This document shows, one piece after another, positions 2 through 28,889 of a stretch of 64,000 nt of DNA (positions within the stretch are counted from its first letter, which is position 1; the number at the start of each line of letters is the position of its first letter). Made by a program: the position numbers and the translations under genes. The notes below the pieces were generated by a model. That model had not been told where the DNA came from. It saw only the letters and a program-made list of their open reading frames with translations, and did not search any database. Source of the stretch: Lachnospiraceae bacterium (GTDB taxonomy: Bacteria > Bacillota > Clostridia > Lachnospirales > Lachnospiraceae); the NCBI GenBank assembly GCA_021199235.1, contig JAJQIL010000072.1, positions 1,806 through 65,805 of the forward strand, given 5' to 3'.

Positions 2-247
2 CTGGTCGATCTGTTCTGTGAAAAATGGGGCGAAGGCCAGTCCTGGATCAATCAGTGCGACAACGGCCCTCATGAGGCAAACTTTTTGAAACTGGACTGC
101 TCGAAGGTAAAGCGCATGTTTGGCTGGAAGCCGCGCTGGCATGTGGAAGAAGCAGTCGCGAAGACGGTGGAATGGGCAAAGGTGTATTACGCGGCGCAGG
201 ATGTACCGGCGTGCATGGAAGCCCAGATCCGGGAGTTCTGCGGGTGA
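2..247 (+). CDS. rfbG: 3' end of CDP-glucose 4,6-dehydratase (partial, runs off window edge)
   Basis: Frame 2 reads ...GPHEANFLKLDCSKVKRMFGWKPRWHVEEAVAKTVEW...CG*, the typical RfbG C-terminus; rfbH lies downstream. Confidence 0.85.
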   Translation: MVDLFCEKWGEGQSWINQCDNGPHEANFLKLDCSKVKRMFGWKPRWHVEEAVAKTVEWAKVYYAAQDVPACMEAQIREFCG

Positions 248-302
248 TACCGGCTGCTGTGAGGGTACGGAACAGTTACATTTTGATAAGGAGAATTTTT
301 TT

Positions 303-3300
303 ATGAAAGGAGAGTTTCTGAAAAGCAATACAATTACAGGGCGGATTTTTTTCATCCTCTGCATTGTATTGCTGGCAGTCTCGGCAGGCGCATTTCAGGT
401 TCATGCCGAAGAGCAGGAATTCTCTTTTTCGGGAGAAGGCACAAAGGATTCCCCTTATTTAATTCAAAGCGTTGAGGATCTGTGTGAATTCCGGGATCTG
501 GTGAATGAGGGAGAAGAGTTTCAGGCCTGTTATTTTTATCAGACAGAGAATCTGGATCTCAGTGGTATAGACTGGATCCCGATTGGTATTTATGAGAGCG
601 GTCATTACTTTTACGGAGTGTATGATGGCGGCGGCCATTATCTGGAGAATCTCTATAGTATCAATCAGTATGAGAATCTGGATGAGGATGAAGCCAGCTA
701 TCCCGGTCTGTTTGGTCAGCTGGCGGGCATCGTTCTGAATCTGGGGATCGAAAGCGGCCGGATAGAGGGGACTCACTGCGGTTCCATTGCCAGCCACGCC
801 GTATCAGGCACATCTCCTTACATTATCAACTGTTATAATAAAGCGGATGTAAAGGGCGTGCGAGCGGGCGGGATTGCGGACAACTTTAGCAGTGGGACGA
901 TTATTAACTGCTGGTACAGTGCTGATACGGACAGTTCGTCGACAGAAGTCTCGGGGCCTGCTTCCTACGATGGAACGCTGGTCGACTGTTTTGGCATCAC
1001 GGACGAGTATGCAGATTCTTATGAAGGAACGATCGTTGCCGCCCGCGAAACCGGTTCGGAATCTGAACTGACGGTTGAAAGCCAGCTGGCGGATGTCGGC
1101 ATCCTCTATCTGCCGGAAGAGATTGATGCAGGTATGCTGATCCCCTGGGAATGGGATGGGGAGGAACTGGTTTTTTCCGGGACTTCCTATGCGGAGATTT
1201 CGGTAAATGCAGACACTGCTTTTGAGGGAGAAGGAACCGAAGAGGAGCCCTATCTGATCCGATCCTGGTCGGATCTGTGTACGTTCCGCTATCTGGTGAA
1301 TCTGGGAAATGAGTTTTCCGGTGTTTACTTTCAGCAGACAGAGGATATCGAAGTAGAAAGCGACGACTGGGTTCCGATTGGTATTTGCGGAAGCGAACAT
1401 TATTTTTATGGTATATATGATGGCGCGGGTCATACCATTACGGGACTGACAACAGAATATCATACGGATTCTGCAAGGGACGGCAAAGGATTTTTTGGAC
1501 AGCTGGGAGGCGTGGTCGCCAATCTCCGACTGGAAGCGGTGGATCTGGAAGGGGCTTATTGCGGCGCGGTTGCGGCGATGTCCGCAAGTAAAAATGAGGA
1601 ACGCACAGCAGCTGTTTTAAACTGTTATGTCAGCGGTTCTCTGACCGGATATCGACTTGGCGGAATCGCGGATTATTTTTCAGAAGCGACGATTGCGAAC
1701 TGTATCAGCGAGGTTACACTTACCTTATATGAAGAGACGGAGGGGATAGAGGAAAGCTGCGGCGGCATTCTTTCTTCCAGTCTGGACACGAAGGTATATG
1801 GATGCCGCACAACGGCGGATCAGGTCATGCCGGAAGCATATAACAGTGCGACATCTGGTGTTATCACGGCACTGGACATGCAGAATGAAGGCTTTGCATT
1901 TAGACAGAATATACGCACTGCACTGACACAGGAACTGTTCGCGAATCAGTTTGGCGTTCGCCTTTTGCAGTGGGAGCTCGACGGTGAGGGTTTCCTGCAA
2001 TTTGGGGAAGGAAATTTTTATATCCTGCTGTTTGACTGGATTAATATATATTTACTCCCGTGCCTGATGCTGATTTTTATATTTGCAGCTTTTATATGGA
2101 TAAAAAGGACGGGGATTAAGGAGTTTGAAAATAAATATCGTCAGCAGATTTCTGCGGTTATGATCATATCGGCGATCATTTCCGTGTTCGTGGATCTTGC
2201 CGCGCCCGGAACCGCTAAGGAAGCACTGTGCGCCGGCAATATCTGTTTTATAACAGAGGTAAATATTGTCTTTATAATTTCATTCCTGTTATCTGTACGG
2301 AAGCTTCCTGTTAAACGCGGAAGCATTACAGGCACTGCTGCAGTGTCAGCAGTCATGCTGCTGATACTGATACTGGAACTGCAGCAGTTTGGCATTACGC
2401 CGCTGTATGATGCCTCCTTATATTACGGAAGCCTTGTGAGAGGAGTGAAATTATTTCGTCTGGATCTGTTCAGCTATATCGGGGCTTTTGTGTGCTGGAA
2501 ATGGGCGCAGGGAAGTGCCCTGCTGATCGCTCCGCTTGAGTTTCTGTTTCCCGGGCAGATGATCGGAGTATATGTGTCTGATATTGTGATCACGGAGGTC
2601 ACTGTTGTGATCATGTACAGACTGATCCGGGAAACAGTAAATGAATGTCCTCCTGTGGTCGCGGCTCTGTCTGGCGCTGTTTTGATTTTTTGCCCGTACC
2701 AGCTGGGGATGTTTACGTATCTTAACCTTGACACGTACCTTTCCTGTTACGTGATCTGGCTGCTGTACAGTTATAAACGCAAAAACAACCTGATGATCGC
2801 ATTCTGCGGCTATCTGCTTTGCTTTACTAAAATAACCGGCGGCGTATTTTATGTCTGCTTTCTTGTGGCAGCTTCCATATATGACGCCTGCAGACGGTAT
2901 ACCGGATCCCTGCCGAAACGTCTGGCCGGAGAGTGGAACTGGTTCAAATGTATCGTGTGGGTGCTTCCGGGCTTTCTCTATCTGGGAGCTTTTCTGTTCG
3001 GAGACTGGCTGACCATACAATACTTTGACGGTGCCTATATCATCTCAGTCATGGCGTCGGCTAAAACGGCGGTTTCGATAGGAAATACTTTCGTTCAGGC
3101 CTTCGTCTTCGGACTGCGCTGGCTGTTCCTGCTCATTATTGTTTTTGCAGGGGTTTTGTGGCTGGTACGTCCCTCGAAACGTTATCAGACATTAAACCGG
3201 GAAGGTGCCCAAATGGTTTGCGGAATACTCGCAGGCACTGTGTTTGTTATTATTATGCTGCTGATGTATAACGGCAATGCGGAATGTCCCAGATACACGG

Positions 3301-3983
3301 CAATTCTGAATTCCGTATATTGCATTTTGCTTCCGGTTGCTGTATTATTTCTTGGGTCCCGGACGCTGTTCCGGACCTCATGCATGGGTATTCTGACGGT
3401 ACTGATGCTGATACAGACATACTGGACGATTGATCCGGTTATCCTGGCACATGGGACGGGGATTGATACGGGGAAGAAAACTCTGTATCGACTGGCTCTC
3501 GATCATGATTCCCGCGCAGGGATGAATCTGGGGCTGGAATACAGTGAATACGCGGTTGTCGGAGACATTTATGCGTATAATATAGAGTACAGCTATTATA
3601 ACGGCCTGATCCGGGAGATCATGAGTGAAATTGATCCCACGGAAGAAGATACGTTTTACATTCTGGATCTGATGACATATGAGATGCATCTGAGCGGGGA
3701 GCAGTATCCCATTTACTGGAACTCCAGACTGAAAAAAATGACATATGACGGTGAGGATGAAGACAGTATTTTACTTCAGCAGGAGAGCATAAAAACAGAA
3801 GAGCTCTGTTCAGCTGATATTGGAGAACTGGAGCTGGAAAAGGATTTTTATCTGGTGGCTGCATCGCGCGTAGATGAACAGGCCGCGGTCGACCGGCTTC
3901 TGGAAGAAGGATATGAAGTAATGGAAACTTATGAAGCGGAGAACGCGTATGGGGCAATGAATGTGTACCATCTTGTTCAATAG
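303..3983 (+). CDS. Signal peptide + two GLUG/ZmpB-like extracellular domains + multi-pass GT-C-like membrane domain
   Basis: ATG at 303 after AAGGAG (the ORF-track start at 120 overlaps rfbG). Two repeats of FxGxGTxxxPYLI...DWxPIG...YFYGxYDGxGH...GxFG; >10 hydrophobic segments after about aa 580; PLYDASLYY loop. Confidence 0.7.
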   Translation: MKGEFLKSNTITGRIFFILCIVLLAVSAGAFQVHAEEQEFSFSGEGTKDSPYLIQSVEDLCEFRDLVNEGEEFQACYFYQTENLDLSGIDWIPIGIYESGHYFYGVYDGGGHYLENLYSINQYENLDEDEASYPGLFGQLAGIVLNLGIESGRIEGTHCGSIASHAVSGTSPYIINCYNKADVKGVRAGGIADNFSSGTIINCWYSADTDSSSTEVSGPASYDGTLVDCFGITDEYADSYEGTIVAARETGSESELTVESQLADVGILYLPEEIDAGMLIPWEWDGEELVFSGTSYAEISVNADTAFEGEGTEEEPYLIRSWSDLCTFRYLVNLGNEFSGVYFQQTEDIEVESDDWVPIGICGSEHYFYGIYDGAGHTITGLTTEYHTDSARDGKGFFGQLGGVVANLRLEAVDLEGAYCGAVAAMSASKNEERTAAVLNCYVSGSLTGYRLGGIADYFSEATIANCISEVTLTLYEETEGIEESCGGILSSSLDTKVYGCRTTADQVMPEAYNSATSGVITALDMQNEGFAFRQNIRTALTQELFANQFGVRLLQWELDGEGFLQFGEGNFYILLFDWINIYLLPCLMLIFIFAAFIWIKRTGIKEFENKYRQQISAVMIISAIISVFVDLAAPGTAKEALCAGNICFITEVNIVFIISFLLSVRKLPVKRGSITGTAAVSAVMLLILILELQQFGITPLYDASLYYGSLVRGVKLFRLDLFSYIGAFVCWKWAQGSALLIAPLEFLFPGQMIGVYVSDIVITEVTVVIMYRLIRETVNECPPVVAALSGAVLIFCPYQLGMFTYLNLDTYLSCYVIWLLYSYKRKNNLMIAFCGYLLCFTKITGGVFYVCFLVAASIYDACRRYTGSLPKRLAGEWNWFKCIVWVLPGFLYLGAFLFGDWLTIQYFDGAYIISVMASAKTAVSIGNTFVQAFVFGLRWLFLLIIVFAGVLWLVRPSKRYQTLNREGAQMVCGILAGTVFVIIMLLMYNGNAECPRYTAILNSVYCILLPVAVLFLGSRTLFRTSCMGILTVLMLIQTYWTIDPVILAHGTGIDTGKKTLYRLALDHDSRAGMNLGLEYSEYAVVGDIYAYNIEYSYYNGLIREIMSEIDPTEEDTFYILDLMTYEMHLSGEQYPIYWNSRLKKMTYDGEDEDSILLQQESIKTEELCSADIGELELEKDFYLVAASRVDEQAAVDRLLEEGYEVMETYEAENAYGAMNVYHLVQ

Positions 3984-3990
3984 TCCCAAA

Positions 3991-4048
3991 CAGCAGCAAA
4001 AGGAAAGGCTGAACCCTCAGGACTGCAAAGGGCAGCAGCAAAAGGAAA
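3991..4048 (+). repeat. 16-bp direct repeat pair CAGCAGCAAAAGGAAA (period 42 bp)
   Basis: Copies at 3991-4006 and 4033-4048, intergenic. Confidence 0.9.
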
Positions 4049-4067
4049 AGAGAGGAATTAACAGGCT

Positions 4068-5408
4068 ATGAATCACTGGGAGAATGAGACAGAGGCGCGC
4101 GAAGAGATTAAAAGTATGGTAACGGAGTATTACCATCAGTTCAAGGAGAAGAAAGACGACTTCCATGAAGGAGATCGCATCTCCTACGCCTCAAGGGTAT
4201 ATGACGAAAAGGAAATGTGTGCACTGACGGATGCGGCTCTGGACTTCTGGCTGACGACAGGACGCTTCGCGGATCAGTTTGAAAAGGAGTTCGCGAAGTG
4301 GATCGGTGTGCGTTACGCGCATCTGGTCAACAGCGGTTCTTCCGCGAATCTGATCGCGTTCATGGCGCTGACGGCGCCGGAACTGGGAGAAAGACAGATC
4401 CGGCGGGGGGATGAGATCATCACCGTCGCCTGCGGATTCCCCACCACTGTGACGCCGATCCTGAATTACGGCGCGGTGCCGGTCTTCGTGGATGTGACCG
4501 TTCCACAGTACAATATTGATGTCACAAAGCTGGAGGCGGCTCTGTCGGAAAAGACGAAGGCCGTCATGATCGCGCATACGCTGGGCAATCCGTTTGACCT
4601 TCAGCAGGTGAAGGCGTTCTGCGACGCGCACAACCTCTGGCTGGTGGAGGACAACTGCGACGCGCTCGGCACGCAGTACACGATCAATGGTGAGACGAAA
4701 TACACCGGCACCTGGGGCGACATCGGGACCAGCAGCTTCTATCCGCCGCATCATATGACGATGGGCGAGGGCGGATGCGTCTATACGGACAATCCCCTGC
4801 TTCATAAGCTGATCCTGTCTTATCGCGACTGGGGACGCGACTGCATCTGCCCGTCCGGAAAAGACAATTTCTGCGGCCACCGGTTTGACGGACAGCACGG
4901 CGAGCTGCCGCAGGGCTATGACCATAAATATGTCTACAGCCATTTCGGATATAACTTAAAAGTGACGGATCTGCAGGCGGCGATCGGCTGCGAGCAGCTG
5001 AAAAAATTCCCGTCCTTTATCGAACGCCGCCGGCACAACTGGGACAGGCTGCACGCGGCGCTGGAGGGCGCGCAGGATCGGCTGATCCTGCCGGAACCGG
5101 CTGATCACAGCCGCCCGTCATGGTTTGGCTTCCTGATCAGTGTGAAAGAAGAAAGCGGCCTGGAACGCAACAAAGTGACCCGCTACATTGAAGATCACAA
5201 TGTACAGACAAGACTTTTGTTTTCCGGGAACCTGATCAAACATCCCTGCTTTGACCAGATCCGCGGCACGGACGCGTACCGGGTGGCGGGAAGCCTGGAC
5301 GCGACGGAATTTATCATGAACAACACATTCTGGGTGGGCGTTTACCCGGGCATGACGGATGAGATGATCGACTATATGGCGAAGGTGATACTTGAAGCGA
5401 TAGGGTAA
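4068..5408 (+). CDS. rfbH: CDP-4-keto-6-deoxy-D-glucose 3-dehydrase (E1, PMP/Fe-S; DegT/DnrJ superfamily)
   Basis: SSFYPPHHMTMGEGG has His in place of the Schiff-base Lys; RDWGRDCxCxxGxDNxCG Fe-S motif; GYDHKYVYSHFGYNLK. Confidence 0.92.
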   Translation: MNHWENETEAREEIKSMVTEYYHQFKEKKDDFHEGDRISYASRVYDEKEMCALTDAALDFWLTTGRFADQFEKEFAKWIGVRYAHLVNSGSSANLIAFMALTAPELGERQIRRGDEIITVACGFPTTVTPILNYGAVPVFVDVTVPQYNIDVTKLEAALSEKTKAVMIAHTLGNPFDLQQVKAFCDAHNLWLVEDNCDALGTQYTINGETKYTGTWGDIGTSSFYPPHHMTMGEGGCVYTDNPLLHKLILSYRDWGRDCICPSGKDNFCGHRFDGQHGELPQGYDHKYVYSHFGYNLKVTDLQAAIGCEQLKKFPSFIERRRHNWDRLHAALEGAQDRLILPEPADHSRPSWFGFLISVKEESGLERNKVTRYIEDHNVQTRLLFSGNLIKHPCFDQIRGTDAYRVAGSLDATEFIMNNTFWVGVYPGMTDEMIDYMAKVILEAIG

Positions 5409-5490
5409 CAATTCAGGGCGGCACCTCGCACCTGCTGCTTCTTCCTGGCAGGTGCGGTTAACAGAGAAACAGGAAAAAGGAGACGACAGG

Positions 5491-7326
5491 ATGAAACAGA
5501 GATTAGCGGATTATGTGGCGGATTTTCTGGTGGAGCACGGTGTGACCGACTGTTTCAGCGTGGTCGGCGGCGGCGCGATGCACTTAAATGACGCGCTGGG
5601 TCATAAAGAAGGCCTGAAAGTGACATACAATCATCATGAACAGGCCTGCGCGATTGCAGCGGAAGCCTATGCACGCCTTGACAATAAGATCGCGGCTGTC
5701 TGTGTCACGACAGGCCCTGGCGGCACGAACGCGTTGACAGGAGTTGTCGGCGGATGGCTGGATTCGATTCCGATGTTTATTATCAGCGGCCAGGTCCGCT
5801 ATGATACGACGGCCAGATATGCGCTGCAGTATACGGGGACCCCGCTGCGGGCGATGGGGGATCAGGAGTATGATATCGTAAAATCGGTGGAGCCGATGAC
5901 AAAATACGCGACCATGATCGAGGATCCTGCGCAGATCCGCCATGCGCTTGAAAAAGGCTGGCATCTTGCTACAACCGGCCGGCCGGGACCGGTCTGGATC
6001 GACATTCCTGTGAATTATCAGGGCGGCTATATTGAAACGGACGATCTGGAAGGCTACGATCCGGCAGAGGATGACGCGCTTCTTCCGCCGCAGGTCTCTG
6101 ATGGGACGATCGATGTCGTCCTGGAAAAGATAAAGAACGCAAAACGGCCGGTCTTCCATGCGGGATATGGGATCCGGCTTTCCGGAGGGTATGAAGCCTT
6201 CCGCGAGGCGGCGGACAGGCTGCAGATCCCGGTCGTCACCTACTGGAATGCGGCGGATCTGATCGAGGACGATAACCCGCTGTACTGCGGCCGTGCCGGG
6301 AATATGGGAGACCGTCCGGGGAACTGGGCGATCCAAAACGCGGATCTGATCCTTGCGGTCGGCACGAGAATCTCCATCCGGCAGGTGGGATATAACTGGA
6401 AGACATGGGCCCGTGCCGCGGAAGTGATCATGGTCGATATTGATCAGGCAGAGATGAAAAAGCCCACGTTGCATGTGGATATGCCCATCTGGGCGGACGC
6501 GAAGGATTTTCTGACAAAGTTGAATCGGAGAATTGCAGAAACGCCTGTCAGTACAGCTTTTGACTGGCTTGCGACCTGCCAGCGCTGGAAGAGAGAGTAT
6601 CCTGTGGTGCGGCCGCGTCAGTGGGAAGAGAATGGATCGACAGCGAATGTGTACGCGTTTGTGCGCTATCTTTCCAGCCGGCTTCCGGAAAACAGCCTCA
6701 CAGCGGTATCGAACGGAGCCTGCTGCGTGGTAGGCAATCAGGCTTATGTAATCCAGAAGGGAAGCCGCATGGCCAACAACAGCGCGATCGCCAGCATGGG
6801 GTACGGCCTTCCGGCCGCGATCGGCACCTGCATCGGCGGCGGCAGGAAGACCACGATCTGCCTGGAGGGCGACGGCAGTATTATGATGAATCTGCAGGAG
6901 CTGCAGACTGTGCTGACCAATCAGCTTCCCATTAAGCTGTTTCTGATCAACAACAGCGGTTATCATTCGATCCGCATCACGCAGACCAACCTGTTCGGAG
7001 AGCATACGAAGGTGGGGATCGGGCCGGAATCCGGCGACCTTTCTTTCCCGGAGTTCCGGAAGATCGCGGAAGCGTTTGGGTATCCTTATTACAGTGCTTC
7101 CAGCAACGCCGAGATGAAAGAGGCCGTGGATCAGGTGCTCTCGACGGACGGGCCGGTATTCTGCGAAATCTTTACGGACACAAAGCAGGTATGGGAGCCG
7201 AAGAGCAGCACGAAGCGTCTGGAGGACGGGACACTTGTCAGCCCGCCGCTCGAAGATCTTGCTCCGTTCCTTCCAAAAGAGGAACTTGAAAGGAATATGT
7301 TTATACCTCTGGTGCCGGAGCAGTAA
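5491..7326 (+). CDS. TPP-dependent acetolactate-synthase-like enzyme, YerE-like branched-sugar carboligase
   Basis: HHEQACAIAAEAY, TTGPGGTN, GDGSIMMNLQEL...NN TPP motif; located in a CDP-sugar cluster; ATG at 5491 after AAGGAG. Confidence 0.85.
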   Translation: MKQRLADYVADFLVEHGVTDCFSVVGGGAMHLNDALGHKEGLKVTYNHHEQACAIAAEAYARLDNKIAAVCVTTGPGGTNALTGVVGGWLDSIPMFIISGQVRYDTTARYALQYTGTPLRAMGDQEYDIVKSVEPMTKYATMIEDPAQIRHALEKGWHLATTGRPGPVWIDIPVNYQGGYIETDDLEGYDPAEDDALLPPQVSDGTIDVVLEKIKNAKRPVFHAGYGIRLSGGYEAFREAADRLQIPVVTYWNAADLIEDDNPLYCGRAGNMGDRPGNWAIQNADLILAVGTRISIRQVGYNWKTWARAAEVIMVDIDQAEMKKPTLHVDMPIWADAKDFLTKLNRRIAETPVSTAFDWLATCQRWKREYPVVRPRQWEENGSTANVYAFVRYLSSRLPENSLTAVSNGACCVVGNQAYVIQKGSRMANNSAIASMGYGLPAAIGTCIGGGRKTTICLEGDGSIMMNLQELQTVLTNQLPIKLFLINNSGYHSIRITQTNLFGEHTKVGIGPESGDLSFPEFRKIAEAFGYPYYSASSNAEMKEAVDQVLSTDGPVFCEIFTDTKQVWEPKSSTKRLEDGTLVSPPLEDLAPFLPKEELERNMFIPLVPEQ

Positions 7327-7331
7327 AATAT

Positions 7332-7409
7332 GGATACCCGCGCCATGCAAATCGTCCTGCGGACGATGGGCGCGGGCTGCGTCCCCCGGTTTCGGTGGAA
7401 ACCGGGGAC
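7332..7409 (+). repeat. Family-1 double-hairpin palindromic element, copy A
   Basis: GGATA CCCGCGCC ATGCAA ATCGTCC TGC GGACGAT G GGCGCGGG CTGC GTCCCCCGGTTTC GGTG GAAACCGGGGAC; same architecture as copies at 47124, 50093, 51881, 53478 and 57909. Confidence 0.75.
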
Positions 7410-7437
7410 AATATACAATATACAGGTGGAACGGATT

Positions 7438-8376
7438 ATGATACACAGAACGATCAGAAATGCGGTGGTGACGGGACCTACCGGAGCGATTGGAGCAGCT
7501 TTGTGCGAAAAACTTCTGTCGGAAGGAATTCACGTATGGGCGGTCTGCCGTCCGGGGAGTGCGCGGGCAGCTGATCTGCCCGAGGATGAGAATCTGCATA
7601 TTCTGTACTGCGACGCGAAGGATATTCTGACGCTTGCCGATCAGATCCCTGTCAGGCAGCAGGCTTTCTTTCATCTGGCCTGGGCCCATACGATCGGAGA
7701 GGGCCGGAACAACATGATCGCCCAGACAGAAAATATACAATATACCCTGTATGCGGTGCAGTGCGCCGCAAAGCTCGGCTGTCAGGTATTTATCGGAGCC
7801 GGAAGCCAGGCGGAATACGGCAGGGTAAACGGCCCGCTTCACGCGGATACTCCCTGCAATCCTGAAAACGGATACGGTATGGCCAAGCTGTGTGCGGGGC
7901 AGATGAGCCGTATTGAAGCCGGAAAGCTCGGGATCGCGCATATCTGGCCGCGGGTATTGTCAGTATATGGTCCGCATGAGTGTTCAACTACGATGACATC
8001 ATTTTTGGCAGAGACTCTTTTGAAAAACGAGAAGTCGGCTCTGACAGCGGGAGAACAGATATGGGATTATCTGTATTCCGCGGACGCCGCGGATGCCTTT
8101 TACCGGATGGCTTTATCCGGCAGGGATGGGGCCGTGTATCCTCTCGGAAGCGGCGAAGCACGTCCTCTGAAGGAGTATGTGGGCATGATCCGGGATGCGA
8201 TCGATCCGGCTCTGCCGCTGGGACTGGGTGAGATTCCCTACGGAAAGCTTCAGGTCATGCATCTGGAAGCGGATATCAGCGCTCTGAAAGAAGATACCGG
8301 CTTTGAGGTACATACGGATTTTGCGGAAGGCATCAAAAAGACGATAGACTGGATCAGGAGTCGGGAAAATGAGTGA
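7438..8376 (+). CDS. NAD-dependent epimerase/dehydratase/reductase (extended SDR)
   Basis: VVTGPTGAIG Rossmann motif; GSQAEYG; YGMAK (YxxxK). Confidence 0.88.
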   Translation: MIHRTIRNAVVTGPTGAIGAALCEKLLSEGIHVWAVCRPGSARAADLPEDENLHILYCDAKDILTLADQIPVRQQAFFHLAWAHTIGEGRNNMIAQTENIQYTLYAVQCAAKLGCQVFIGAGSQAEYGRVNGPLHADTPCNPENGYGMAKLCAGQMSRIEAGKLGIAHIWPRVLSVYGPHECSTTMTSFLAETLLKNEKSALTAGEQIWDYLYSADAADAFYRMALSGRDGAVYPLGSGEARPLKEYVGMIRDAIDPALPLGLGEIPYGKLQVMHLEADISALKEDTGFEVHTDFAEGIKKTIDWIRSRENE

Positions 8377-9331
8377 AGAAAAGAAAAAAATATCCGTGAT
8401 GATCCCCTGCTATAATGAGGAAGAAAATGTGGTTCCCATCAGCGAGGCGGTCGTAGACATTTTAAATAAAGAACTGCCGGAGTATGATTATGAAATCCTT
8501 TTTATCGACAATTGCTCTACGGATAGAACCAGGGATCTGCTCCGGGCTATCTGCAGTCAGAACCCGAAGATCAGAGCAATTCTGAACGCCAGGAACTTCG
8601 GACAGTTTAACTCCCCTTACTATGGACTGTGCCAGACAACGGGAGACTGTACGATCTCGCTGTGCTGCGATTTTCAGGATCCGGTGGAGCTGATCCCGGT
8701 ATTCGTTCACGAATGGGAAAAGGGCTATAAGATCGTGAGCGGGATCAAGACGTCCAGTAAGGAAAACCGGTTTATTTACTTTTTAAGAACCGTATATTAT
8801 AAACTGATCAAGAATATGTCGTCCGTGGATATGATCGAGCATTTTACCGGCTTCGGACTTTACGATAAGGATTTTATCCAGCTGCTTCGCGATCTGGAAG
8901 ATCCCATCCCGTTTATCCGGGGCGTGGTTGCGGAATTTGGCTATAAACGCAAAGAAATCGAATACGAGCAGCCGAAACGGAGAGCCGGCAAAACACACAA
9001 CAATTTCTATTCTCTGTACGATGCCGCCATGCTGAGCTTTACTTCCTACACGAAGGTTGGCCTGCGGCTGGCAAGCTTTGCAGGGTATATCTGTGCATTT
9101 TTCAGTTTTATCGTCGGAATCGTATATTTTATCCTGAAGCTTCTGAACTGGAACAGCTTTTCAGCGGGCATGGCGCCGCTGGTCATCGGACTGTTTTTCC
9201 TTTCCGGCGTTGAACTGATCTTTATCGGTTTTCTGGGTGAGTATGTCATGAATATCAATCAGAGAGTCATGAACCGGCCGCTGGTGGTAGAAGAAGAAAG
9301 GATTAATTTTGATGAACAGCGTGATAAGTAA
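8369..9331 (+). CDS. GT2 polyprenol-phosphate glycosyltransferase (GtrB-like)
   Basis: IPCYNEEEN, FIDNCSTD, RNFG, CDFQDP, two C-terminal TM helices. Confidence 0.9.
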   Translation: MSEEKKKISVMIPCYNEEENVVPISEAVVDILNKELPEYDYEILFIDNCSTDRTRDLLRAICSQNPKIRAILNARNFGQFNSPYYGLCQTTGDCTISLCCDFQDPVELIPVFVHEWEKGYKIVSGIKTSSKENRFIYFLRTVYYKLIKNMSSVDMIEHFTGFGLYDKDFIQLLRDLEDPIPFIRGVVAEFGYKRKEIEYEQPKRRAGKTHNNFYSLYDAAMLSFTSYTKVGLRLASFAGYICAFFSFIVGIVYFILKLLNWNSFSAGMAPLVIGLFFLSGVELIFIGFLGEYVMNINQRVMNRPLVVEEERINFDEQRDK

Positions 9332-12131
9332 AGCCAACGAAAAAGCGCATATTCGGTCTGGCAGTGACAGACAGGGATATCAGAAGTTTCTGTATGCACT
9401 TGCACTCTGTGCGATTATGATAGTATACGCTTCCATATATTTTAATAATACGTTTCCGTTAAGTGAAGGCTGGAATGTGAATTATGCGGAACTGGTATTA
9501 CAGGGAAAATTCCCATACCGTGATTTTTATTATTATCTGCCTCCTCTGAACTTATTATTCGATATTATAACGTGGAAGCTGTCGTTTGGGCTGCTGATCG
9601 TGTATCGTGCGTGGTGGTTTGCTCAGAGAATACTGATATTTGAACTTTTGCTTTTCCTTCTGTGCAGATATTATAAACCGCTTTACGCATTTATTGCGTG
9701 CTCTTTTGCTTCTGTATTAGGAACTGCGTCCGTTTATGATTTATTTGGGGATTACAATCAAACGGTAGTGTTGCTGGCTGTCTGTCTTGTTTATTGCGCA
9801 GTCGCTTTTGCCGACGCTTCATCAGAAAAAGACAAATGCAGGAAGCTTATTAAGGCGGGGGTTGTCCTTGGCCTCATGTTTTTGTGCAAGCAAACAATAT
9901 TTGTGGCGGCGGTGTTTACCTTTTTTATAGTGCTGGCAATTGCCTGCCGGCTGAAAAAGGACGGAAGCTTTCCGAGATATATCGCTGCCGTATTTGGCGG
10001 CGTGATGATAATCGTGGTGCCGGCTCTCGCTGTTTTAGGACTCAATGGTGCAATGATTCCTTTTATTGAACAGGCTTTTCTGCACACCGGTGGAAAGGGC
10101 AGCCTGTTTGCTACCCTGGTAATAAGATTAATCAACAAGCTTCCGCACATTTTTGCCTGGATCATGATCGGAGAGGTTCTGATGATGATATATCTGGGAA
10201 ACAAAAAGAATGTGGACGGCGGGAACTCTCAGTCCGGGAGAATGGCATTTATTGTATTTTTGCTGACCGGCTGCGTGATTTTTCAAAATAACATTTCTGT
10301 TTTTCTGAACGCATTATCGGACTATACCCGTTTTTCTTATATCCAGGTGATCATCTGTATTGGTCTGCTCCTCTTTATTGCTGTCCTGATGACAGGATGT
10401 TTCAAAAGACCTGCCCTGCGGATATCGGAGGAGTTCTCTTTGGGTATGTGCTTTGCTTCCTGCGCATTTATTTTAATCGCCGGCTATATTGCTGACATGC
10501 AGTCGGAGGAACTGGCCAATGTAGTATTTAATGAAAGCGGCCTGTATTCTGTAATTACGGAATTCCTCTATTTTGCTGTTTTTTATGCGGTGATCCTGGT
10601 GTTGTTAAAAAAACTGCTTTCTGTAAAGCGGTCCGCCGACAGCGTGAATGAGGGAAAACTCTGGATATCCTGCGGTGCCTTTGCGGCAATTTATTCGTCG
10701 TCAATGGCTTCGGGTTCGGAACTTCCGTATAATGGAATGTGGATTGGATTGTGTTTTATTCTATGTGAAGCGTTTTCCGTTATGGTCTATGATAAACGGC
10801 TGGAACATATTTTAAAATACAGTCTGACCTTTGGATGCGGTATTCTTTCATTTGCGTGCATGGCTCAGAAAACAATGGTTTCTTATGTGTGGTGGGGATG
10901 TGATAGTGAGAGCAGAAGTGAAAAAACTTATACCACAGATATCTCTGCTCTTAAGGGCTTCCGTTTTTCGGAAGATATGAAAAATACACTGGAAGGAATT
11001 ACAGAACTGATAGAGGATAATTGCGATGAAGACGCGGTTATCTATGGGTTTCCATATATTAAACTTTTTAATATTCTGACGGAGCGGTACAATTTCGAAA
11101 CCTTTGTTCCGGTCATGTTTTATGACGTTGTTGATGACCTGTATGTAGATAAGGAAAATGAACTTCTCAAAGATAATCTGCCTGATATCATCATCTGGCA
11201 GGATATTCCCGGCTGTATGGAAACGCATGAGGAGGCATACCGTGACGGAGAATTACTCGAACAGAGGAATACGGAAGCTTATTTTAAGGAGATCCTTCCG
11301 ACAGAATATTATATCCTGGGAACCTATGATAATATTACAGTATATAAGCTCAGGGATAATTCCGGGGCAGCGTGTTTTGCCGGAGGCAGCGGGACGTATG
11401 AGGATCCTTATCTGATTGAGACTGCGGAACAGCTGATAAATTTCAGCACATTAGTAAATGAAGGAAGCAGCTTTGAGGGATGCTATATAAGCCAGACGGA
11501 AGATATCGATCTGGCAGGGTATGACTGGACGCCTGTTGGGGAATTTGGTCTGGAAACGTATTTTTGTGGCGTTTATAATGGCAATGGGCATATTATCAAA
11601 AATATAGAACTGGAGGAATCCGACAGCAATGTCGGAGGTGTTTTCGGAGTACTGGGCGGGGAAGTATATAACCTGGGAGTAGAATATGGATCGATCAGCG
11701 GCGCCTGTGCAGGAGGGATCGCAAGCCACTCGGGTGGAGTCGGCGCGAAAATAATCAATTGCTATACGGATATATCGGTTTCCGGATACCGTGCGGGCGG
11801 AATCGCGGATAACTTTTCCGGAGCCATAGAGAATTGCTTCAGCTTTGGGGAACTAACAGGCATTGAGACGGCAAATGTTGTTTCCTATAATTCGGCACAG
11901 AGTATTTCAAATGTGTTCGTCTGTTCTGAGGCATTGACATCCGCTTTTTATACCGAAGATTTGAATGACAGCAGAATTACGTATTGTGCAGAGGAAGCGT
12001 TTGCTTCCGGTACAGTCGCCGATCAGCTGAACACCTATGTTGAAGAGTGGAATTCAGAGGATGAAGAGGACAGTATTCTTTTAAATGCATGGACGGTCGG
12101 ATCGGACGGACATCCGGTTTTTGCTGATTAG
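9312..12131 (+). CDS. GT-C-like multi-pass membrane protein with a C-terminal GLUG/ZmpB-like domain
   Basis: GKFPYRDFYYYLPPL loop typical of GT-C proteins; many TMs; C-terminal FAGGSGTYEDPYLI...DWTPVG...YFCGVYNGNGH. Confidence 0.7.
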   Translation: MNSVISKANEKAHIRSGSDRQGYQKFLYALALCAIMIVYASIYFNNTFPLSEGWNVNYAELVLQGKFPYRDFYYYLPPLNLLFDIITWKLSFGLLIVYRAWWFAQRILIFELLLFLLCRYYKPLYAFIACSFASVLGTASVYDLFGDYNQTVVLLAVCLVYCAVAFADASSEKDKCRKLIKAGVVLGLMFLCKQTIFVAAVFTFFIVLAIACRLKKDGSFPRYIAAVFGGVMIIVVPALAVLGLNGAMIPFIEQAFLHTGGKGSLFATLVIRLINKLPHIFAWIMIGEVLMMIYLGNKKNVDGGNSQSGRMAFIVFLLTGCVIFQNNISVFLNALSDYTRFSYIQVIICIGLLLFIAVLMTGCFKRPALRISEEFSLGMCFASCAFILIAGYIADMQSEELANVVFNESGLYSVITEFLYFAVFYAVILVLLKKLLSVKRSADSVNEGKLWISCGAFAAIYSSSMASGSELPYNGMWIGLCFILCEAFSVMVYDKRLEHILKYSLTFGCGILSFACMAQKTMVSYVWWGCDSESRSEKTYTTDISALKGFRFSEDMKNTLEGITELIEDNCDEDAVIYGFPYIKLFNILTERYNFETFVPVMFYDVVDDLYVDKENELLKDNLPDIIIWQDIPGCMETHEEAYRDGELLEQRNTEAYFKEILPTEYYILGTYDNITVYKLRDNSGAACFAGGSGTYEDPYLIETAEQLINFSTLVNEGSSFEGCYISQTEDIDLAGYDWTPVGEFGLETYFCGVYNGNGHIIKNIELEESDSNVGGVFGVLGGEVYNLGVEYGSISGACAGGIASHSGGVGAKIINCYTDISVSGYRAGGIADNFSGAIENCFSFGELTGIETANVVSYNSAQSISNVFVCSEALTSAFYTEDLNDSRITYCAEEAFASGTVADQLNTYVEEWNSEDEEDSILLNAWTVGSDGHPVFAD

Positions 12132-12187: not shown

Positions 12188-13468
12188 ATGGGAGGAAAAA
12201 CAGGTATACTGAAAAAGGCAGGTAAGAAAGAAAAAAAAAATAATCCGGCGCAGATTTTCTGTATTCTGATGTGTGTCAGTCTGATCTGCCTGGTTTTTCT
12301 GTTTTTGTTTACCAACGGAAAAACCATGGATCACTTTTTCTTCTGGGACACTGCGGATTCGGGAATGGATTTTTTTAACAGCATCCGATACATCTGGGGA
12401 CGATGGCCTTATAAACTTTACTCTACATTGTATCCCCCGCTGGCGAATCTGTTTTTTCTCTTAATGTACGCGTTTGTTCCACGGGAAATTACGGATACCT
12501 GGGGCCAGGATGCGTCAATACGCCGGACAGAGCTTGACCTTCGGACTTATCAGTGCGGTTTCATGCTGTATATGATCGTGGTAATTGTCTCTCTGGCGAT
12601 CCTTGTGGCGCTCGCATATAAATATATGAACGAAAAAAATATAAAATATGCAGGCGCTGTTTCCATGCTGTTTTGCTTTAGCTATGGTTCGCTCTATGCA
12701 GTGGAGCGGGGAAACATTATCTTATTAACTGCCGGACTTTCCCTGTTTTTTATTGTTTTTTACAGATCAGAAAACAGGATATTGAAAGAGCTCGCTCTGA
12801 TTTCTCTTGCAATAGCAGCCGGATTTAAGCTTTATCCTGCTTTTCTGGGAGTGCTGTTATTAAAGGAAGGAGATAAAAAGGTTATATTCCGCACAATATT
12901 GTATGGCATTTTAGGCGTTGTGATGCCCTGCTTTGCGTTCAGAGAAGGGCTGGAGGCAATTCCGCTCTGGCTCGAGGTGCTGTCTGAATTTGGTTCAGAC
13001 TCTGTTCAGCCCTGGTTCGGAAATGGTATTGACTGCGCGCTGGCAAATGCCGCGCATCTGCTGGATCTGATTCTCAATACGAATCTGGCAGCGATATCCT
13101 GGAAATATGTTGCATATGCAATAGCACTTATTTTTCTGGCAGCGGCATTTTTTATGGACAAATTATGGGAAAGCGTATTAGCGCTGACCTTTGTAATGCT
13201 GTTTCAATCGCAGGCGGATTACTTTTACTGTATGTCTCTTATCCCATTGCTGCTGTTTCTGACGGAAGAAAAAAAGATTACGAAAGAGAACATCATTCCT
13301 TTTGTGATAATGATGTGTATGGTTCTCCCCTTTCCGCTTCTGTATTGCGAGGACGAATTTTATCCCCGGGACATTTTAATACATGTTTCCGTATTTGTTT
13401 TACTGTTCCGGGATATTGCCATAGTGGTACCGAAAATGAGGAGGCACAGAAATGAAGCCGGATCATAA
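12188..13468 (+). CDS. GT87 (DUF2029)-like polyprenol-phosphosugar glycosyltransferase
   Basis: DFFNS...PY...LYPPLANLFF, ERGNI, FKLYPA; multi-TM. Confidence 0.75.
   Translation: MGGKTGILKKAGKKEKKNNPAQIFCILMCVSLICLVFLFLFTNGKTMDHFFFWDTADSGMDFFNSIRYIWGRWPYKLYSTLYPPLANLFFLLMYAFVPREITDTWGQDASIRRTELDLRTYQCGFMLYMIVVIVSLAILVALAYKYMNEKNIKYAGAVSMLFCFSYGSLYAVERGNIILLTAGLSLFFIVFYRSENRILKELALISLAIAAGFKLYPAFLGVLLLKEGDKKVIFRTILYGILGVVMPCFAFREGLEAIPLWLEVLSEFGSDSVQPWFGNGIDCALANAAHLLDLILNTNLAAISWKYVAYAIALIFLAAAFFMDKLWESVLALTFVMLFQSQADYFYCMSLIPLLLFLTEEKKITKENIIPFVIMMCMVLPFPLLYCEDEFYPRDILIHVSVFVLLFRDIAIVVPKMRRHRNEAGS
12231..12240 (+). repeat. A10 homopolymer in the 5' end of the GT87 gene
   Basis: Ten consecutive A at 12231-12240. 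Confidence 0.95.
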
Positions 13469-14729
13469 AAAAATTAAGGGGCTCTCTCCCTTATGGAAAA
13501 AAACTTCGTTTGTCTTTGTTGTACTTATGACGATAAGTATACTGGCGCTTCTGGCGGTTTTTCTGTTTACGCGTGGTGAGGCAATGGAACATTTCTGGTT
13601 TCACTCGCCGATTGATACGGGAATGGATTTTTTTCACAGCATTGAGTATGTAAGGGACAGATCGCCGTATGAAATTTTTGGGACCCTGTATCCGCCTCTG
13701 GCCAATCTGTTTTTCCTTTTCATTTACGCGTTCATACCGGAAAGCGTAGCAGAGAATTGGACATACAATTTTGAAGAATCGGTCAATCTGCGGCAGACAG
13801 TATACGACCCGCGGACGTATCAGAGCTGCATGATGATGTTCCTGATCTTCGTGATATTTGTTACATTTATGGTTGCCATTCTTGTCCGCCGATATTTTCA
13901 GAAAAAAGGCAATCCGTACGCAGGAGCATGCGCCTGCTGTTTTGTGTTAAGCTACGGGGTTTTGCAGGCTCTGGAACGCGGGAATATTGTGATCCTTGCT
14001 GCCGGGTTCTCCTTATTTTTTGTTTCCTTTTATCGCTCGGACAATAAAGTCCTGAAAGAACTGGCATTGATTTCCCTCGCATTTGCTGCCGGATTAAAGG
14101 TATACCCCTGCCTGCTGGGCGTTTTGCTTCTGAAGGAAAAGGATGCTCCTGTCATTATCCGGACGATAATATATGGTATTGCTGCATTTGTTCTTCCATG
14201 TTTTGCGTTCAGGGAGGGGTTAGGGGCAATCCCCATGTGGCTCAATATTTTAATAAATCATACGAACAGTCTGGAATCCCCATGGCTGGGCATTGGGATA
14301 TCGAATGCCTTTGCAGATGGCGCGCATTTGATTGATACATTTTTCGGGACCGGTCTGGCCAATGCTTCTTTTAGTATTGCCGGCATCCTCGTGGCGGTCG
14401 TTTTTCTGATCATCGCTTTGTTCCTGAAAAAGACATGGATGAGTGCACTGGCTATCACATTTGCCATGCTGTTTCAGGATCAGGGCAGCTATTTCCTGTG
14501 CATGGCGCTGGTGCCGCTGATGCTTTTTCTGGGGGAGGAAAAGGAATTTACGCGTGAAAATATCATTCCGTTTGTGATCCTGATGATTATAGCATTGCCT
14601 CTTCCAATCCTGTATACGTATAACGTCTGTAACCCAAGGAATACCATGATTCATATAGCGATGCCTGTTTTTCTGATATGGGGGCTCCTGTATGTGGTAA
14701 AAAACAGAAAGGATTCTGATATACAATGA
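13452..14729 (+). CDS. GT87 (DUF2029)-like glycosyltransferase, tandem paralogue
   Basis: Shares DxGMDFF, LYPPLANLFF, ERGNI and LKELALISLA with the upstream gene; RBS GAGGAGG. Confidence 0.75.
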   Translation: MKPDHKKIKGLSPLWKKTSFVFVVLMTISILALLAVFLFTRGEAMEHFWFHSPIDTGMDFFHSIEYVRDRSPYEIFGTLYPPLANLFFLFIYAFIPESVAENWTYNFEESVNLRQTVYDPRTYQSCMMMFLIFVIFVTFMVAILVRRYFQKKGNPYAGACACCFVLSYGVLQALERGNIVILAAGFSLFFVSFYRSDNKVLKELALISLAFAAGLKVYPCLLGVLLLKEKDAPVIIRTIIYGIAAFVLPCFAFREGLGAIPMWLNILINHTNSLESPWLGIGISNAFADGAHLIDTFFGTGLANASFSIAGILVAVVFLIIALFLKKTWMSALAITFAMLFQDQGSYFLCMALVPLMLFLGEEKEFTRENIIPFVILMIIALPLPILYTYNVCNPRNTMIHIAMPVFLIWGLLYVVKNRKDSDIQ

Positions 14730-15258: not shown

Positions 15259-15276
15259 GATCGGAGATGCTCCGCG

Positions 15277-15301
15277 AGAATGCGCCTGACGCATTCTTTT
15301 A
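15277..15301 (+). terminator. Probable intrinsic terminator
   Basis: AGAATGCG-CCTGA-CGCATTCT followed by T run. Confidence 0.6.
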
Positions 15302-15330
15302 TTGTAAATGGCCGGATATTGGGTTATAAT
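15302..15330 (+). promoter_or_regulatory. Sigma-A-like promoter for wzm-wzt
   Basis: TTGTAA-17 bp-TATAAT. Confidence 0.6.
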
Positions 15331-17545: not shown

Positions 17546-17549
17546 CAGG

Positions 17550-28878: not shown

Positions 28879-28889
28879 GAGTGCTTGCA

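Follow-up and report, generated by a model that had tools for sequence, protein, structure and literature searches.

Gene content of the locus

The window analysed here is a 64,000 nt stretch of the genome of a Lachnospiraceae bacterium (contig JAJQIL010000072.1), in which the following features were assigned.

2-247, + strand: 3' end (last 81 codons) of rfbG, CDP-glucose 4,6-dehydratase (C-terminus of TIGR02622, positions 277-352 of 352, E 1.4e-15)
303-3983, + strand: 1227 aa polytopic membrane protein with two N-terminal GLUG-like domains and a probable GT-C domain (weak PMT_2 match)
4068-5408, + strand: rfbH/ddhC, encoding E1, the PMP- and [2Fe-2S]-dependent CDP-4-keto-6-deoxyglucose 3-dehydrase (NF011936, PDB 3bcx)
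5491-7326, + strand: YerE-like ThDP-dependent lyase, predicted to attach an acyl unit at the C-4 ketone of the CDP-sugar (JanthE 8rph, tree)
7438-8376, + strand: extended SDR, putative YerF-like side-chain ketoreductase (PF01370 Epimerase, E 1.5e-32)
8369-9331, + strand: GtrB/ArnC-type polyprenyl-phosphate GT2, proposed CDP-sugar:undecaprenyl-phosphate transferase (GtrB 5eke, ArnC 9hwj)
9312-12131, + strand: GT-C fold glycosyltransferase (membrane domain approximately residues 1-690) with a C-terminal GLUG-like domain (AF2, Foldseek)
12188-13468, + strand: GT87-like polytopic glycosyltransferase (GT-C; PF09594, 34.6 bits, cut-off 25)
13452-14729, + strand: second GT87-like polytopic glycosyltransferase (GT-C), a tandem paralogue (PF09594, 38.1 bits, cut-off 25)
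14726-15223, + strand: GtrA-family small membrane protein, candidate flippase for a lipid-linked sugar (PF04138, 75.3 bits)
15407-16183, + strand: Wzm (PF01061)
16184-17545, + strand: Wzt with a C-terminal glycan-binding domain (PF00005 and PF14524 Wzt_C)
17496-30056, + strand: rest of the glycan locus (Pfam matches), within which are the next six features
17496-19898, + strand: GT4 and methyltransferase (Pfam)
20410-21498, + strand: GT4 (Pfam)
21495-24008, + strand: double GT4 (Pfam)
26309-27439, + strand: pyruvyl transferase (Pfam)
27931-28878, + strand: second, ordinary GtrB-like GT2 (Pfam)
28716-30056, + strand: FrhB-like Fe-S protein (Pfam)

Profile and PDB matches thus recovered, on the + strand, each of the rfbG, rfbH, TPP carboligase, SDR and overlapping GtrB-like GT2 genes recognised in a sequence-only reading of this DNA. 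Conservation was surveyed across 200 Lachnospiraceae genera, with one genome counted for each, and in a separate set of 80 related loci. The usual gene order is rfbF-rfbG-rfbH-ThDP-SDR(+1.8 kb)-GT2(+2.7 kb), and this cassette recurs in the Lachnospiraceae, Oscillospiraceae, Acutalibacteraceae, Erysipelotrichaceae and Desulfitobacteriaceae. Isolates that carry it include Eubacterium xylanophilum ATCC 35991 and Dubosiella muris. In most related loci rfbG adjoins rfbH; the 3.7 kb gene found between them here (303-3983), which the earlier reading had passed over, is therefore an insertion. The membrane half of its product has a PMT_2 match that falls below the cut-off (E 4.5e-4), whilst the GLUG-like domains, predicted to be extracellular, share 44-49% identity with the domain at the C-terminus of the 9312-12131 product.

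Early steps of the proposed CDP-sugar pathway

The glucose-1-phosphate cytidylyltransferase gene rfbF lies just upstream of the window on the same contig (G000:C124:221-1006), directly followed by the full-length rfbG (G000:C124:~1003-2052), orthologues of which, 59-78% identical, are present in 46 of the 80 related loci. RfbF and RfbG would together convert glucose-1-phosphate to CDP-4-keto-6-deoxyglucose, from which the Fe-S- and PMP-dependent RfbH would remove the 3-hydroxyl. RfbH scores 715 bits against NF011936 (cut-off 423) and 493 bits against the E1 structure 3bcx; when aligned with E1, it has a histidine at His220 and cysteines at C193, C251, C253 and C261, and these active site and cluster residues are the same in the window protein as in all 48 of its orthologues, bearing out its earlier designation as a 'His-type' E1.

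Both rfbF and the E3 reductase gene (ddhD/ascD) had been thought to lie outside the window. A search upstream located rfbF, but ddhD was not seen in the 220 nt that separate rfbF from the end of the contig; nor was an E3 found in the cassette, in the 80 related loci, or by a PF00175 search of the genome, which is 95% complete. With no E3 encoded, the electrons for E1 would come from a general ferredoxin or flavodoxin, and this dependence of E1 turnover on some other reductant counts against the proposed pathway.

A YerE-like enzyme and the adjoining putative reductase

The ThDP enzyme (5491-7326) consists of three TPP_enzyme domains, and its best PDB match is the YerE-like JanthE of Janthinobacterium sp. 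HH01 (8rph, 429 bits; next match 230 bits). The two align over their full lengths, including a C-terminal tail that is unaligned in AHAS I and 5ahk, with 38% identity; the ThDP motif is CDG in JanthE and the canonical GDG in the window protein (PMC12247030). In a tree whose characterised YerE-like member was JanthE, the enzyme is sister to JanthE (support 100/99), and apart from both AHAS I of E. coli and the IlvB of the same genome. This position, a score of 321 bits against the AHAS profile TIGR00118 (cut-off 538) and the presence of a separate true IlvB on another contig (747 bits) rule out an acetolactate synthase. The phylogenetic comparison proposed in the sequence-only reading hence placed the enzyme away from biosynthetic AHAS, which supports the suggestion of a C4-branched dideoxysugar. 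The enzyme would decarboxylate a 2-oxo acid, most simply pyruvate, and transfer the acyl unit to C-4.

In most related loci an SDR gene, 43-65% identical to that in the window, is found directly 3' of the ThDP gene. The open reading frame here spans 7330-8376, with the ATG at 7438 the likely start as it places the Rossmann motif at residue 10; no solved structure is close, the best match scoring 54 bits. The SDR would reduce the new side-chain ketone, giving a CDP-4-C-(1-hydroxyalkyl)-3,6-dideoxyhexose of the yersiniose type.

The same route could also lead to a sugar other than C2-branched yersiniose, if the donor were a longer or functionalised 2-oxo acid, producing an erwiniose- or caryophyllose-like branch, or if the SDR acted elsewhere. 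JanthE, ErwE and MMAR_2332 all take longer donors (PMC12247030), and an HMGL-like aldolase gene lies beside a ThDP gene in 15 of the 80 related loci, with the encoded ThDP enzymes up to 88% identical to that in the window. The nearest relatives (87-88% identical, in loci L005 and L006) adjoin an aldolase, hence the choice of donor is not readable from the ThDP sequence. However, genes for an aldolase, a kinase or any other donor-supply enzyme are absent from the locus, and no cassette-type aldolase was found in the genome, the only HMGL-like gene of which is on another contig, is 28% identical and lacks the fused C-terminal domain. As the ThDP-SDR pair also mirrors yerE-yerF, we consider a different branch to be unlikely.

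A GT2 associated with the pathway

The GT2 gene overlaps the stop codon of the SDR gene by 8 nt, and its product aligns over its full length, including both C-terminal transmembrane helices, with GtrB (5eke, 143 bits) and ArnC (9hwj, 108 bits). The orthogroup is sharply bounded, with a bimodal distribution of identities (at least 42% within it, at most 32% for paralogues), and is present in 70 of the 200 genera. Of the 70 genomes with the orthogroup, 68 have rfbF, against 22 of the 130 without it (Fisher 3e-31); a ThDP homologue is found in 61. Eight of the remaining nine were examined: in five the GT2 gene has a divergent ThDP gene as its neighbour, accompanied by rfb genes in four cases, and one has rfbF and rfbG with no ThDP match.

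Using the residue roles defined for this family (PMC5526996, PMC4728340), the orthogroup was found to keep D96 and Q98 of GtrB, which bind the metal, and R200, which contacts the acceptor phosphate. In place of D43 it has N, D94 is replaced by C, and both D157 and R159 by G. At D43, the position that reads uracil, 46 of 51 orthologues carry Asn, whereas 22 of 23 generic GtrB-like proteins carry Asp; an Asp at D94, and an Arg or Lys at R159, are each retained in only four of the 51. Base- and sugar-contacting positions hence differ from those of UDP-using relatives, which favours a CDP-sugar as the probable donor. Two features count against this: Lys replaces R122, and D157 is absent, the D157N mutant of GtrB being inactive (PMC4728340), although the aligned position in ArnC is Met rather than Asp.

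Alternatively, the CDP-branched sugar might be used in the cytoplasm by a Leloir transferase, such as a GT4 encoded at 17.5-24 kb, during synthesis of the backbone, leaving the GT2 as an ordinary UDP-Glc/UDP-GlcNAc:Und-P transferase. There are several GT4 genes at the locus, and the yersiniose of Yersinia is incorporated in the cytoplasm as part of an O-unit, rather than being directed to a lipid carrier as the product here appears to be. All characterised GtrB-type enzymes are also described as using UDP-sugars (PMC11127046). However, the GT2 orthogroup is conserved with the cassette (48 of the 80 related loci) and the GT4 genes are not; a canonical GtrB-like paralogue, which shares only 30% identity with this GT2 and retains the NDGS/DAD/DFRLM motifs, is already encoded at 27931-28878; and the residues lost from the orthogroup are near-invariant in generic enzymes. 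Such direct use of the CDP-sugar seems distinctly improbable. That the GT2 instead loads an early intermediate (CDP-glucose or CDP-6-deoxyhexose) or uses a non-polyprenyl acceptor, with the later enzymes serving another glycan, is suggested by loci L035 and L057, where rfbF-ThDP-GT2 occurs and neither rfbG nor rfbH lies within reach, but is very hard to credit given the ThDP homologues in most orthogroup genomes, the divergent ThDP genes in at least five more, and the position of the GT2 as the 3'-terminal gene of the pathway, overlapping the last tailoring gene.

Membrane components

The GT-C gene at 9312-12131 begins within the last 20 nt of the GT2 gene, an arrangement of codons that points to translational coupling. 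The AF2 model of its product (pLDDT 86, pTM 0.89) has only GT-C enzymes among its top 20 Foldseek matches in the PDB, the best being ArnT (5ezm, E 4e-6); homologues carry PF13231, one of them being named 'GT39 family', and the family has an invariant Asp (D71) in the first predicted outer loop. GtrA homologues occur in 22 of the 80 related loci, and a terminator-like hairpin (15276-15298) lies 3' of the GtrA gene.

In the proposed pathway, the GT2 would transfer the branched sugar from CDP to undecaprenyl phosphate, GtrA would flip the lipid-linked sugar across the membrane, and one or more GT-C enzymes, the first being the GT2-coupled ArnT-like protein, would attach it to a polysaccharide outside. 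This acceptor would be made by the GT4 enzymes and moved by the predicted Wzm/Wzt ABC exporter. GtrA, the ArnT-like enzyme, the two GT87-like enzymes and Wzm/Wzt most likely complete a three-component decoration system. The routing to Und-P and extracellular addition by GT-C enzymes anticipated in the earlier reading are hence supported by the GtrB and ArnC alignments, the co-occurrence with rfbF, the donor site residues and the downstream GtrA and GT-C genes.

Comparison with known systems

The cassette shares its enzyme logic and local order with the CDP-yersiniose A pathway of Y. pseudotuberculosis O:VI (DdhA-D, YerE, YerF), in which a cytidylyltransferase is followed by a 4,6-dehydratase, E1 3-dehydrase, ThDP lyase and NAD(P)H reductase (PMC9306805, PMC12247030). 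It differs in being carried by a Gram-positive host, in the absence of a detected E3 (DdhD), and in having a ThDP enzyme of a Clostridial clade, distant even from JanthE, the nearest characterised relative.

A GT2 with two C-terminal transmembrane helices, a GtrA-family protein and GT-C enzymes are also common to GtrA/GtrB/Gtr(type) O-antigen glucosylation and to the Gram-positive CsbB/GtcA/YfhO and GacI-L systems, in which, as proposed here, the glycan acted upon is exported separately (PMC11127046, PMC8035078); however, the proposed donor here is a CDP-branched dideoxyhexose rather than a UDP-hexose, and there are four candidate GT-C genes in one locus. ArnC, which synthesises Und-P-L-Ara4FN, is second only to GtrB as a structural relative of the GT2, and ArnT, which transfers the sugar to lipid A, gives the best fold match for the GT-C enzyme coupled to that GT2. 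Like the Arn system, the cassette would pair a nucleotide-sugar pathway of its own with its own lipid-carrier transferase. ArnC, however, uses a UDP-sugar and keeps IDDGS and DAD, and the proposed acceptor here is a polysaccharide rather than lipid A. The three-component addition of pentofuranose to ABC-transporter-dependent O-antigens likewise has a GT-C enzyme draw on a polyprenyl-phosphate sugar to decorate a glycan once Wzm/Wzt has exported it, but there the lipid donor comes from a PRPP-dependent UbiA-type enzyme and not a GtrB-type GT2 (Kelly et al. 2024, PMC11127046).

On balance we favour, as probable, the reading of the whole as a mobile cassette for surface glycan decoration, by which a yersiniose-type CDP-sugar would pass to Und-P and then be added outside the cell by GT-C enzymes. 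A rare carbon-branched 3,6-dideoxy sugar of this type is most likely made, loaded onto lipid and, on the outer side of the membrane, attached to a polysaccharide of the cell wall; delivery by a lipid carrier would be a route so far undescribed for such sugars, in a cassette which is widespread in gut Clostridia and carried here by a gut Lachnospiraceae bacterium.

Organisation of the cassette and its flank

The window (contig C124 of the organism's own genome, G000:C124:1806-65805) lies within a 3.47-Mb assembly that is 95% complete, and opens inside the proposed cassette for synthesis of a branched 3,6-dideoxy sugar and its loading onto a lipid carrier. The closest protein relatives of the window carry Lachnospiraceae annotations. 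All the genes named in the sequence-only reading are present, but that reading omitted a 3.7-kb membrane-protein gene between rfbG and rfbH. It had correctly placed rfbF beyond the window; the gene was located in the 1.8 kb of contig just upstream, and the contig itself begins 220 nt ahead of it. Between the cassette and wzm lie a terminator-like hairpin (15276-15298) and a promoter-like site (15302-15330), both consensus matches only.

Genes of the cassette and its downstream flank (window coordinates, except rfbF)
C124:221-1006, upstream of the window: rfbF, with the remainder of rfbG likewise in the preceding 1.8 kb
2-247, + strand: rfbG, last 81 codons
303-3983, + strand: 1227-aa polytopic protein
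4068-5408, + strand: rfbH
5491-7326, + strand: ThDP enzyme
7438-8376, + strand: extended SDR
8369-9331, + strand: GT2, sharing 8 nt with the SDR gene
9312-12131, + strand: 939-aa polytopic protein, sharing 20 nt with the GT2 gene
12188-13468 and 13452-14729, + strand: two GT87-like proteins (PF09594, above the Pfam cut-off)
14726-15223, + strand: GtrA-family protein (PF04138, 75 bits)
15407-16183, + strand: Wzm (PF01061)
16184-17545, + strand: Wzt with a Wzt_C domain (PF00005 and PF14524)

The ThDP enzyme groups with JanthE

The ThDP enzyme contains the domains PF02776, PF00205 and PF02775, and the 'EGDGS' of its ThDP motif aligns with 'NCDGG' of JanthE. In public sources the protein is named solely as a 'thiamine pyrophosphate-binding protein' or 'acetolactate synthase'. 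Its nearest solved relative is 8RPH (429 bits), the structure of JanthE, a characterised ketone-accepting 'YerE-like' enzyme (PMC12188165, PMC12247030); 5AHK and Escherichia coli acetohydroxyacid synthase (AHAS) I score around 230 bits, and their alignments end before the C-terminal tail (LVSPPLEDL.P) into which that with JanthE extends.

Grouping with biosynthetic AHAS had been named in advance as a result that would count against a yersiniose-type pathway. The enzyme scores 321 bits against the AHAS equivalog TIGR00118, for which the cut-off is 538, while the organism's own IlvB, encoded on contig C7, scores 747. In a maximum likelihood tree, the references for which were JanthE, PpYerE (5AHK) and E. 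coli AHAS I taken from PDB alignments, without Yersinia pseudotuberculosis YerE or ErwE, JanthE is the sister of a group made up of the window enzyme and 13 Clostridial homologues (support 100/99); E. coli AHAS I pairs with the IlvB in a clade of their own (100/99). Because the enzyme is sister to JanthE, falls below the TIGR00118 cut-off and is distinct from the IlvB of the same genome, biosynthetic AHAS is ruled out as the identity of this gene. The ThDP gene is adjoined by rfbF, rfbG and rfbH, and rfbF is present in all 68 genomes of the family scan that have a ThDP homologue.

Two further forms of ThDP gene were observed. A second lineage, 27-31% identical to the window enzyme, accompanies the same GT2 orthogroup in some cassettes (L086:6526-8238, L088:13241-14941, L089:12933-14465 and L091:5995-7533); the first three cluster with PpYerE (92/85), and that of L091 was left out of the final tree owing to its very long branch. 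In around 15 genera, the homologue aligns over residues ~193-610 only, at 53-59% identity, inside a frame of 657-986 aa with a divergent N-terminal part, and rfbF is usually on a different contig (e.g. G132:C18:12364-13659, G170:C37:4264-5547 and G190:C41:10500-11783).

RfbH and its electron supply

The rfbH product scores 715 bits against the RfbH equivalog NF011936 (cut-off 423), and 493 bits against the solved Yersinia E1 3-dehydrase (3bcx), as compared to 204 bits against ColD. Residues H228, C197, C259, C261 and C269 of the window protein align with E1 His220, Cys193, Cys251, Cys253 and Cys261, and all five are invariant across the window protein and 48 orthologues, which bears out the earlier description of this gene as encoding a His-type E1; the non-ligand cysteines of E1, Cys192 and Cys257, are not conserved in the orthologues. 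We take the four aligned cysteines to be the [2Fe-2S] ligands, with the motif C-X57-C-X1-C-X7-C, and the histidine to replace the Schiff-base lysine. The score and the conserved cysteines rule out a ColD-type, Fe-S-free 3-dehydratase, and RfbH is predicted to be an Fe-S, PMP-type 3-dehydrase that requires electrons.

The E3 reductase (DdhD/AscD) is absent from the window, as had been stated from the sequence, and none is encoded between rfbF and the end of the contig 220 nt before it. When the ORFs of 80 related loci were clustered, no such family emerged, and the PF00175 profile has zero matches in the organism's own genome (95% complete), the same profile being positive in 11 of 14 control genomes. 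An FrhB-like Fe-S protein (28716-30056) was considered as an E3 surrogate and not adopted, as it is not conserved with the cassette. The E1 homologue SpnQ reportedly works with general ferredoxin or flavodoxin systems, and by analogy we infer that these would supply the electrons here.

A GT2 orthogroup with altered donor-site residues

The GT2 had been described as GtrB-like and overlapping the SDR gene, and it aligns end-to-end with both Synechocystis GtrB (143 bits, query residues 7-307) and ArnC (108 bits, residues 6-308), these alignments covering the GT-A domain, the juxtamembrane helices and both C-terminal transmembrane helices. For an archaeal dolichyl-phosphate mannose synthase (DPMS), the match covers the GT-A part. 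All three of these enzymes transfer sugars onto polyprenyl phosphate.

One genome from each of 200 Lachnospiraceae genera was scanned. The GT2 matches are bimodal, having 42-76% identity in 70 genomes and no more than 32% in all others; the window's second GtrB-like gene (27931-28878) belongs to the low-identity group. The orthogroup so defined co-occurs strongly with rfbF, found in 68 of these 70 genomes versus 22 of the 130 lacking it (Fisher's test, 3e-31), and 61 of the 70 have a ThDP homologue (E <= 1e-100). Eight of the nine exceptions to the latter were inspected: in five, a more diverged ThDP gene adjoins the GT2, with rfb genes nearby in four of them; another has rfbF and rfbG with no ThDP match; in L090 a sugar C-methyltransferase gene adjoins the GT2; and the last has just a weak, partial rfbG-like match.

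Donor-site positions in 51 orthologues of the GT2 and in 23 generic GtrB-like proteins, among them GtrB, ArnC and the window paralogue (residue roles from GtrB and PfDPMS; PMC4728340, PMC5526996)
D96 and Q98, metal ligands: invariant in the orthologues (window D101, Q103) and in the generic proteins
R200, acceptor phosphate: Arg in 50/51 orthologues (window R204); Arg in 23/23 generic
R122, acceptor phosphate: Lys in 49/51 orthologues; Arg in 17 and Lys in 6 generic
D43, hydrogen bond to uracil N3: Asn in 46/51 orthologues; Asp in 22/23 generic, GtrB and ArnC included
D94, first Asp of DXD, its DPMS equivalent within hydrogen-bond distance of the mannosyl C2 hydroxyl: Cys, Val, Ala or Tyr in 47/51 orthologues; Asp in 23/23 generic
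D157, putative catalytic acid of GtrB: Gly in 47/51 orthologues; Asp in 22/23 generic (Met in ArnC)
R159, aligned in this analysis with DPMS K178, which contacts sugar O4/O6: Gly in 43/51 orthologues; Arg or Lys in 19/23 generic

The orthogroup keeps the catalytic scaffold, and the positions that read the base and the sugar are altered, the pattern that would be expected for a different nucleotide-sugar donor. The uracil-reading Asp43, a mark of a UDP-sugar donor, is replaced in most of the orthogroup. Exchange of Asp for Asn at the N3 contact would suit cytosine and is consistent with a different base, the residue in itself not identifying which. The equivalent of D157 is not retained in most of the orthogroup either, and, to judge from the Met of ArnC, not every member of the family has this residue. 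At a further locus, L106 (G005:C6:18350-19550), a generic GtrB-like protein has the 'DNCS' base-loop motif of the orthogroup and retains the canonical DAD and DFRLM; it may represent an intermediate form.

Membrane partners and the surrounding glycan locus

Judged from the genes, a lipid-sugar synthase, a GtrA-family flippase and a GT-C transferase are encoded together. Homologues of the 9312-12131 product often have PMT_2, one being named a GT39-family protein. An AlphaFold2 model of its residues 1-696, built from a 33-sequence alignment, has a pLDDT of 86 and a pTM of 0.89; the top 20 PDB matches to this model are all GT-C enzymes, the best being ArnT, which uses the lipid-linked sugar produced by ArnC. 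The 303-3983 protein has a sub-threshold match to PMT_2 only. These two polytopic proteins share an extracellular domain without assignment, characterised by GGIAD-type repeats, the three copies of which (window 303-~1900 and 11370-12131) are 44-49% identical to one another: two are N-terminal in the former and one is C-terminal in the latter, most homologues of which are about 660-700 aa long and lack the domain.

Downstream are Wzm (PF01061) and Wzt, which combines PF00005 with the glycan-binding PF14524, as found in ABC-transporter-dependent assembly, along with a GT4-methyltransferase, more GT4s, a pyruvyl transferase and a canonical GtrB-like GT2. This gene content is that of an ABC-transporter-dependent polysaccharide, on which two different post-export decorations would be possible. 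Genes for the polysaccharide pyruvyl transferase, the canonical GtrB-like GT2 and the FrhB/FdhB-like 4Fe-4S protein stand in a row at 26309-30056.

Branch length and variant cassettes

In 15 of the 80 related loci, an HMGL-like aldolase fusion is encoded next to a ThDP enzyme sharing as much as 88% identity with that of the window, which suggests that these loci specify longer, erwiniose-like branches. The aldolase is a 525-aa protein, with an HMGL-like domain and a C-terminal half lacking domain assignment, whose gene is directly 3' of the ThDP gene (e.g. L075:12623-14200); the loci are L005, L006, L009, L012, L014, L018, L021, L027, L029, L032, L036, L051, L055, L073 and L075. A PfkB kinase gene is sometimes next after it (L036:13443-14465). 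No cassette-type aldolase was found in the organism's own locus or genome, and pyruvate is therefore the simplest donor, with the branch length of the product here being uncertain.

In L090 (9371-11698), the gene after a GT2 orthologue of 60% identity encodes an NDP-sugar C-methyltransferase (Methyltransf_14) in place of the ThDP enzyme, apparently an alternative way to a branched sugar for the same type of transferase. In L035 (4287-7993) and L057, rfbF is immediately 5' of the ThDP gene, with the GT2 directly 3' of it in the former and ~0.9 kb further downstream in the latter, and no SDR, rfbG or rfbH is within reach. These two loci may yield a 4-C-acyl sugar whose side chain stays unreduced; alternatively, the absent genes could be located elsewhere.

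Distribution and spread

Homologues of the ThDP enzyme with 70-88% identity are present in more than 590 species representatives in GTDB, the best 80 of which include Lachnospiraceae, Oscillospiraceae, Acutalibacteraceae, Erysipelotrichaceae (Dubosiella) and Desulfosporosinus. The commonest gene order in these 80 loci is rfbF-rfbG-rfbH-ThDP-SDR-GT2; GT2 orthologues (58-76% identity) were found in 45 and GtrA in 22, contig ends cutting many of the loci. The ThDP gene tree is discordant with taxonomy; in the only further genome from the genus, the ThDP gene, the GT2 and rfbF are all missing; and G+C content is 53-58% over rfbH-ThDP-SDR (window 4200-8400) versus 41-49% on both sides. Taken together, these features point to horizontal spread of the cassette. 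The GT2 and GT-C genes belong to the lower-G+C flanks, and the cassette looks mosaic. Cultured carriers are Eubacterium xylanophilum ATCC 35991, Dubosiella muris, Gemmiger formicilis An723 and Desulfosporosinus sp. BG.

A proposed pathway and its implications

In the pathway we propose, CDP-glucose would be converted to CDP-4-keto-6-deoxyglucose and then to CDP-4-keto-3,6-dideoxyglucose, the ThDP enzyme would put an acyl unit on C-4, and the SDR would reduce the new side-chain ketone. The GT2 would then move the sugar onto undecaprenyl phosphate, GtrA would flip the lipid-linked sugar, and the GT-C enzymes would transfer it to the exported glycan. The electron source of E1, the donor of the GT2 and the acceptor glycan are those we infer for this scheme. 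In its sugar chemistry this pathway agrees with the yersiniose A scheme and with the 'unifying scheme' of acyl-branched sugars (PMC9306805), and the delivery route matches three-component glycosylation systems (PMC8035078, PMC11127046), in which GtrB-type enzymes are described as users of UDP-sugars (PMC11127046). A full-text literature search found no paper combining CDP-glucose or dideoxyhexose with GtrB/GT-C.

Branched 3,6-dideoxyhexoses are known from a small number of glycolipids, Gram-negative and mycobacterial, as sugars that are rare and strongly antigenic. The most far-reaching interpretation, which we hold to be about as likely as not, is that the GT2 represents a GtrB-like subfamily taking CDP-activated, C-branched deoxyhexoses; that cytosine is read by Asn in place of Asp43, and Gly at the R159 position gives the C-4 branch room; that, with the subfamily present in roughly one in three Lachnospiraceae genera and also in several other families of Clostridia, yersiniose-type sugars are a surface epitope that is common in the mammalian gut microbiota and is traded horizontally; and that the sugar is attached once the glycan has been exported and not in the cytoplasm.

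Branched-sugar chemistry occurs here in a cassette carried by 70 of the 200 Lachnospiraceae genera sampled and by over 590 species of Clostridia in GTDB. Should the lipid-carrier route prove true, CDP-sugars would be a new donor class for GtrB-type enzymes, and a sequence rule for base specificity would be suggested. The cassette is widespread in abundant gut bacteria, and the existence of cultured carriers makes the idea directly testable. It points to a surface epitope, variable and so far unrecognised, on commensals that abound in the gut; such an epitope bears on phage receptors, immune recognition and strain typing.
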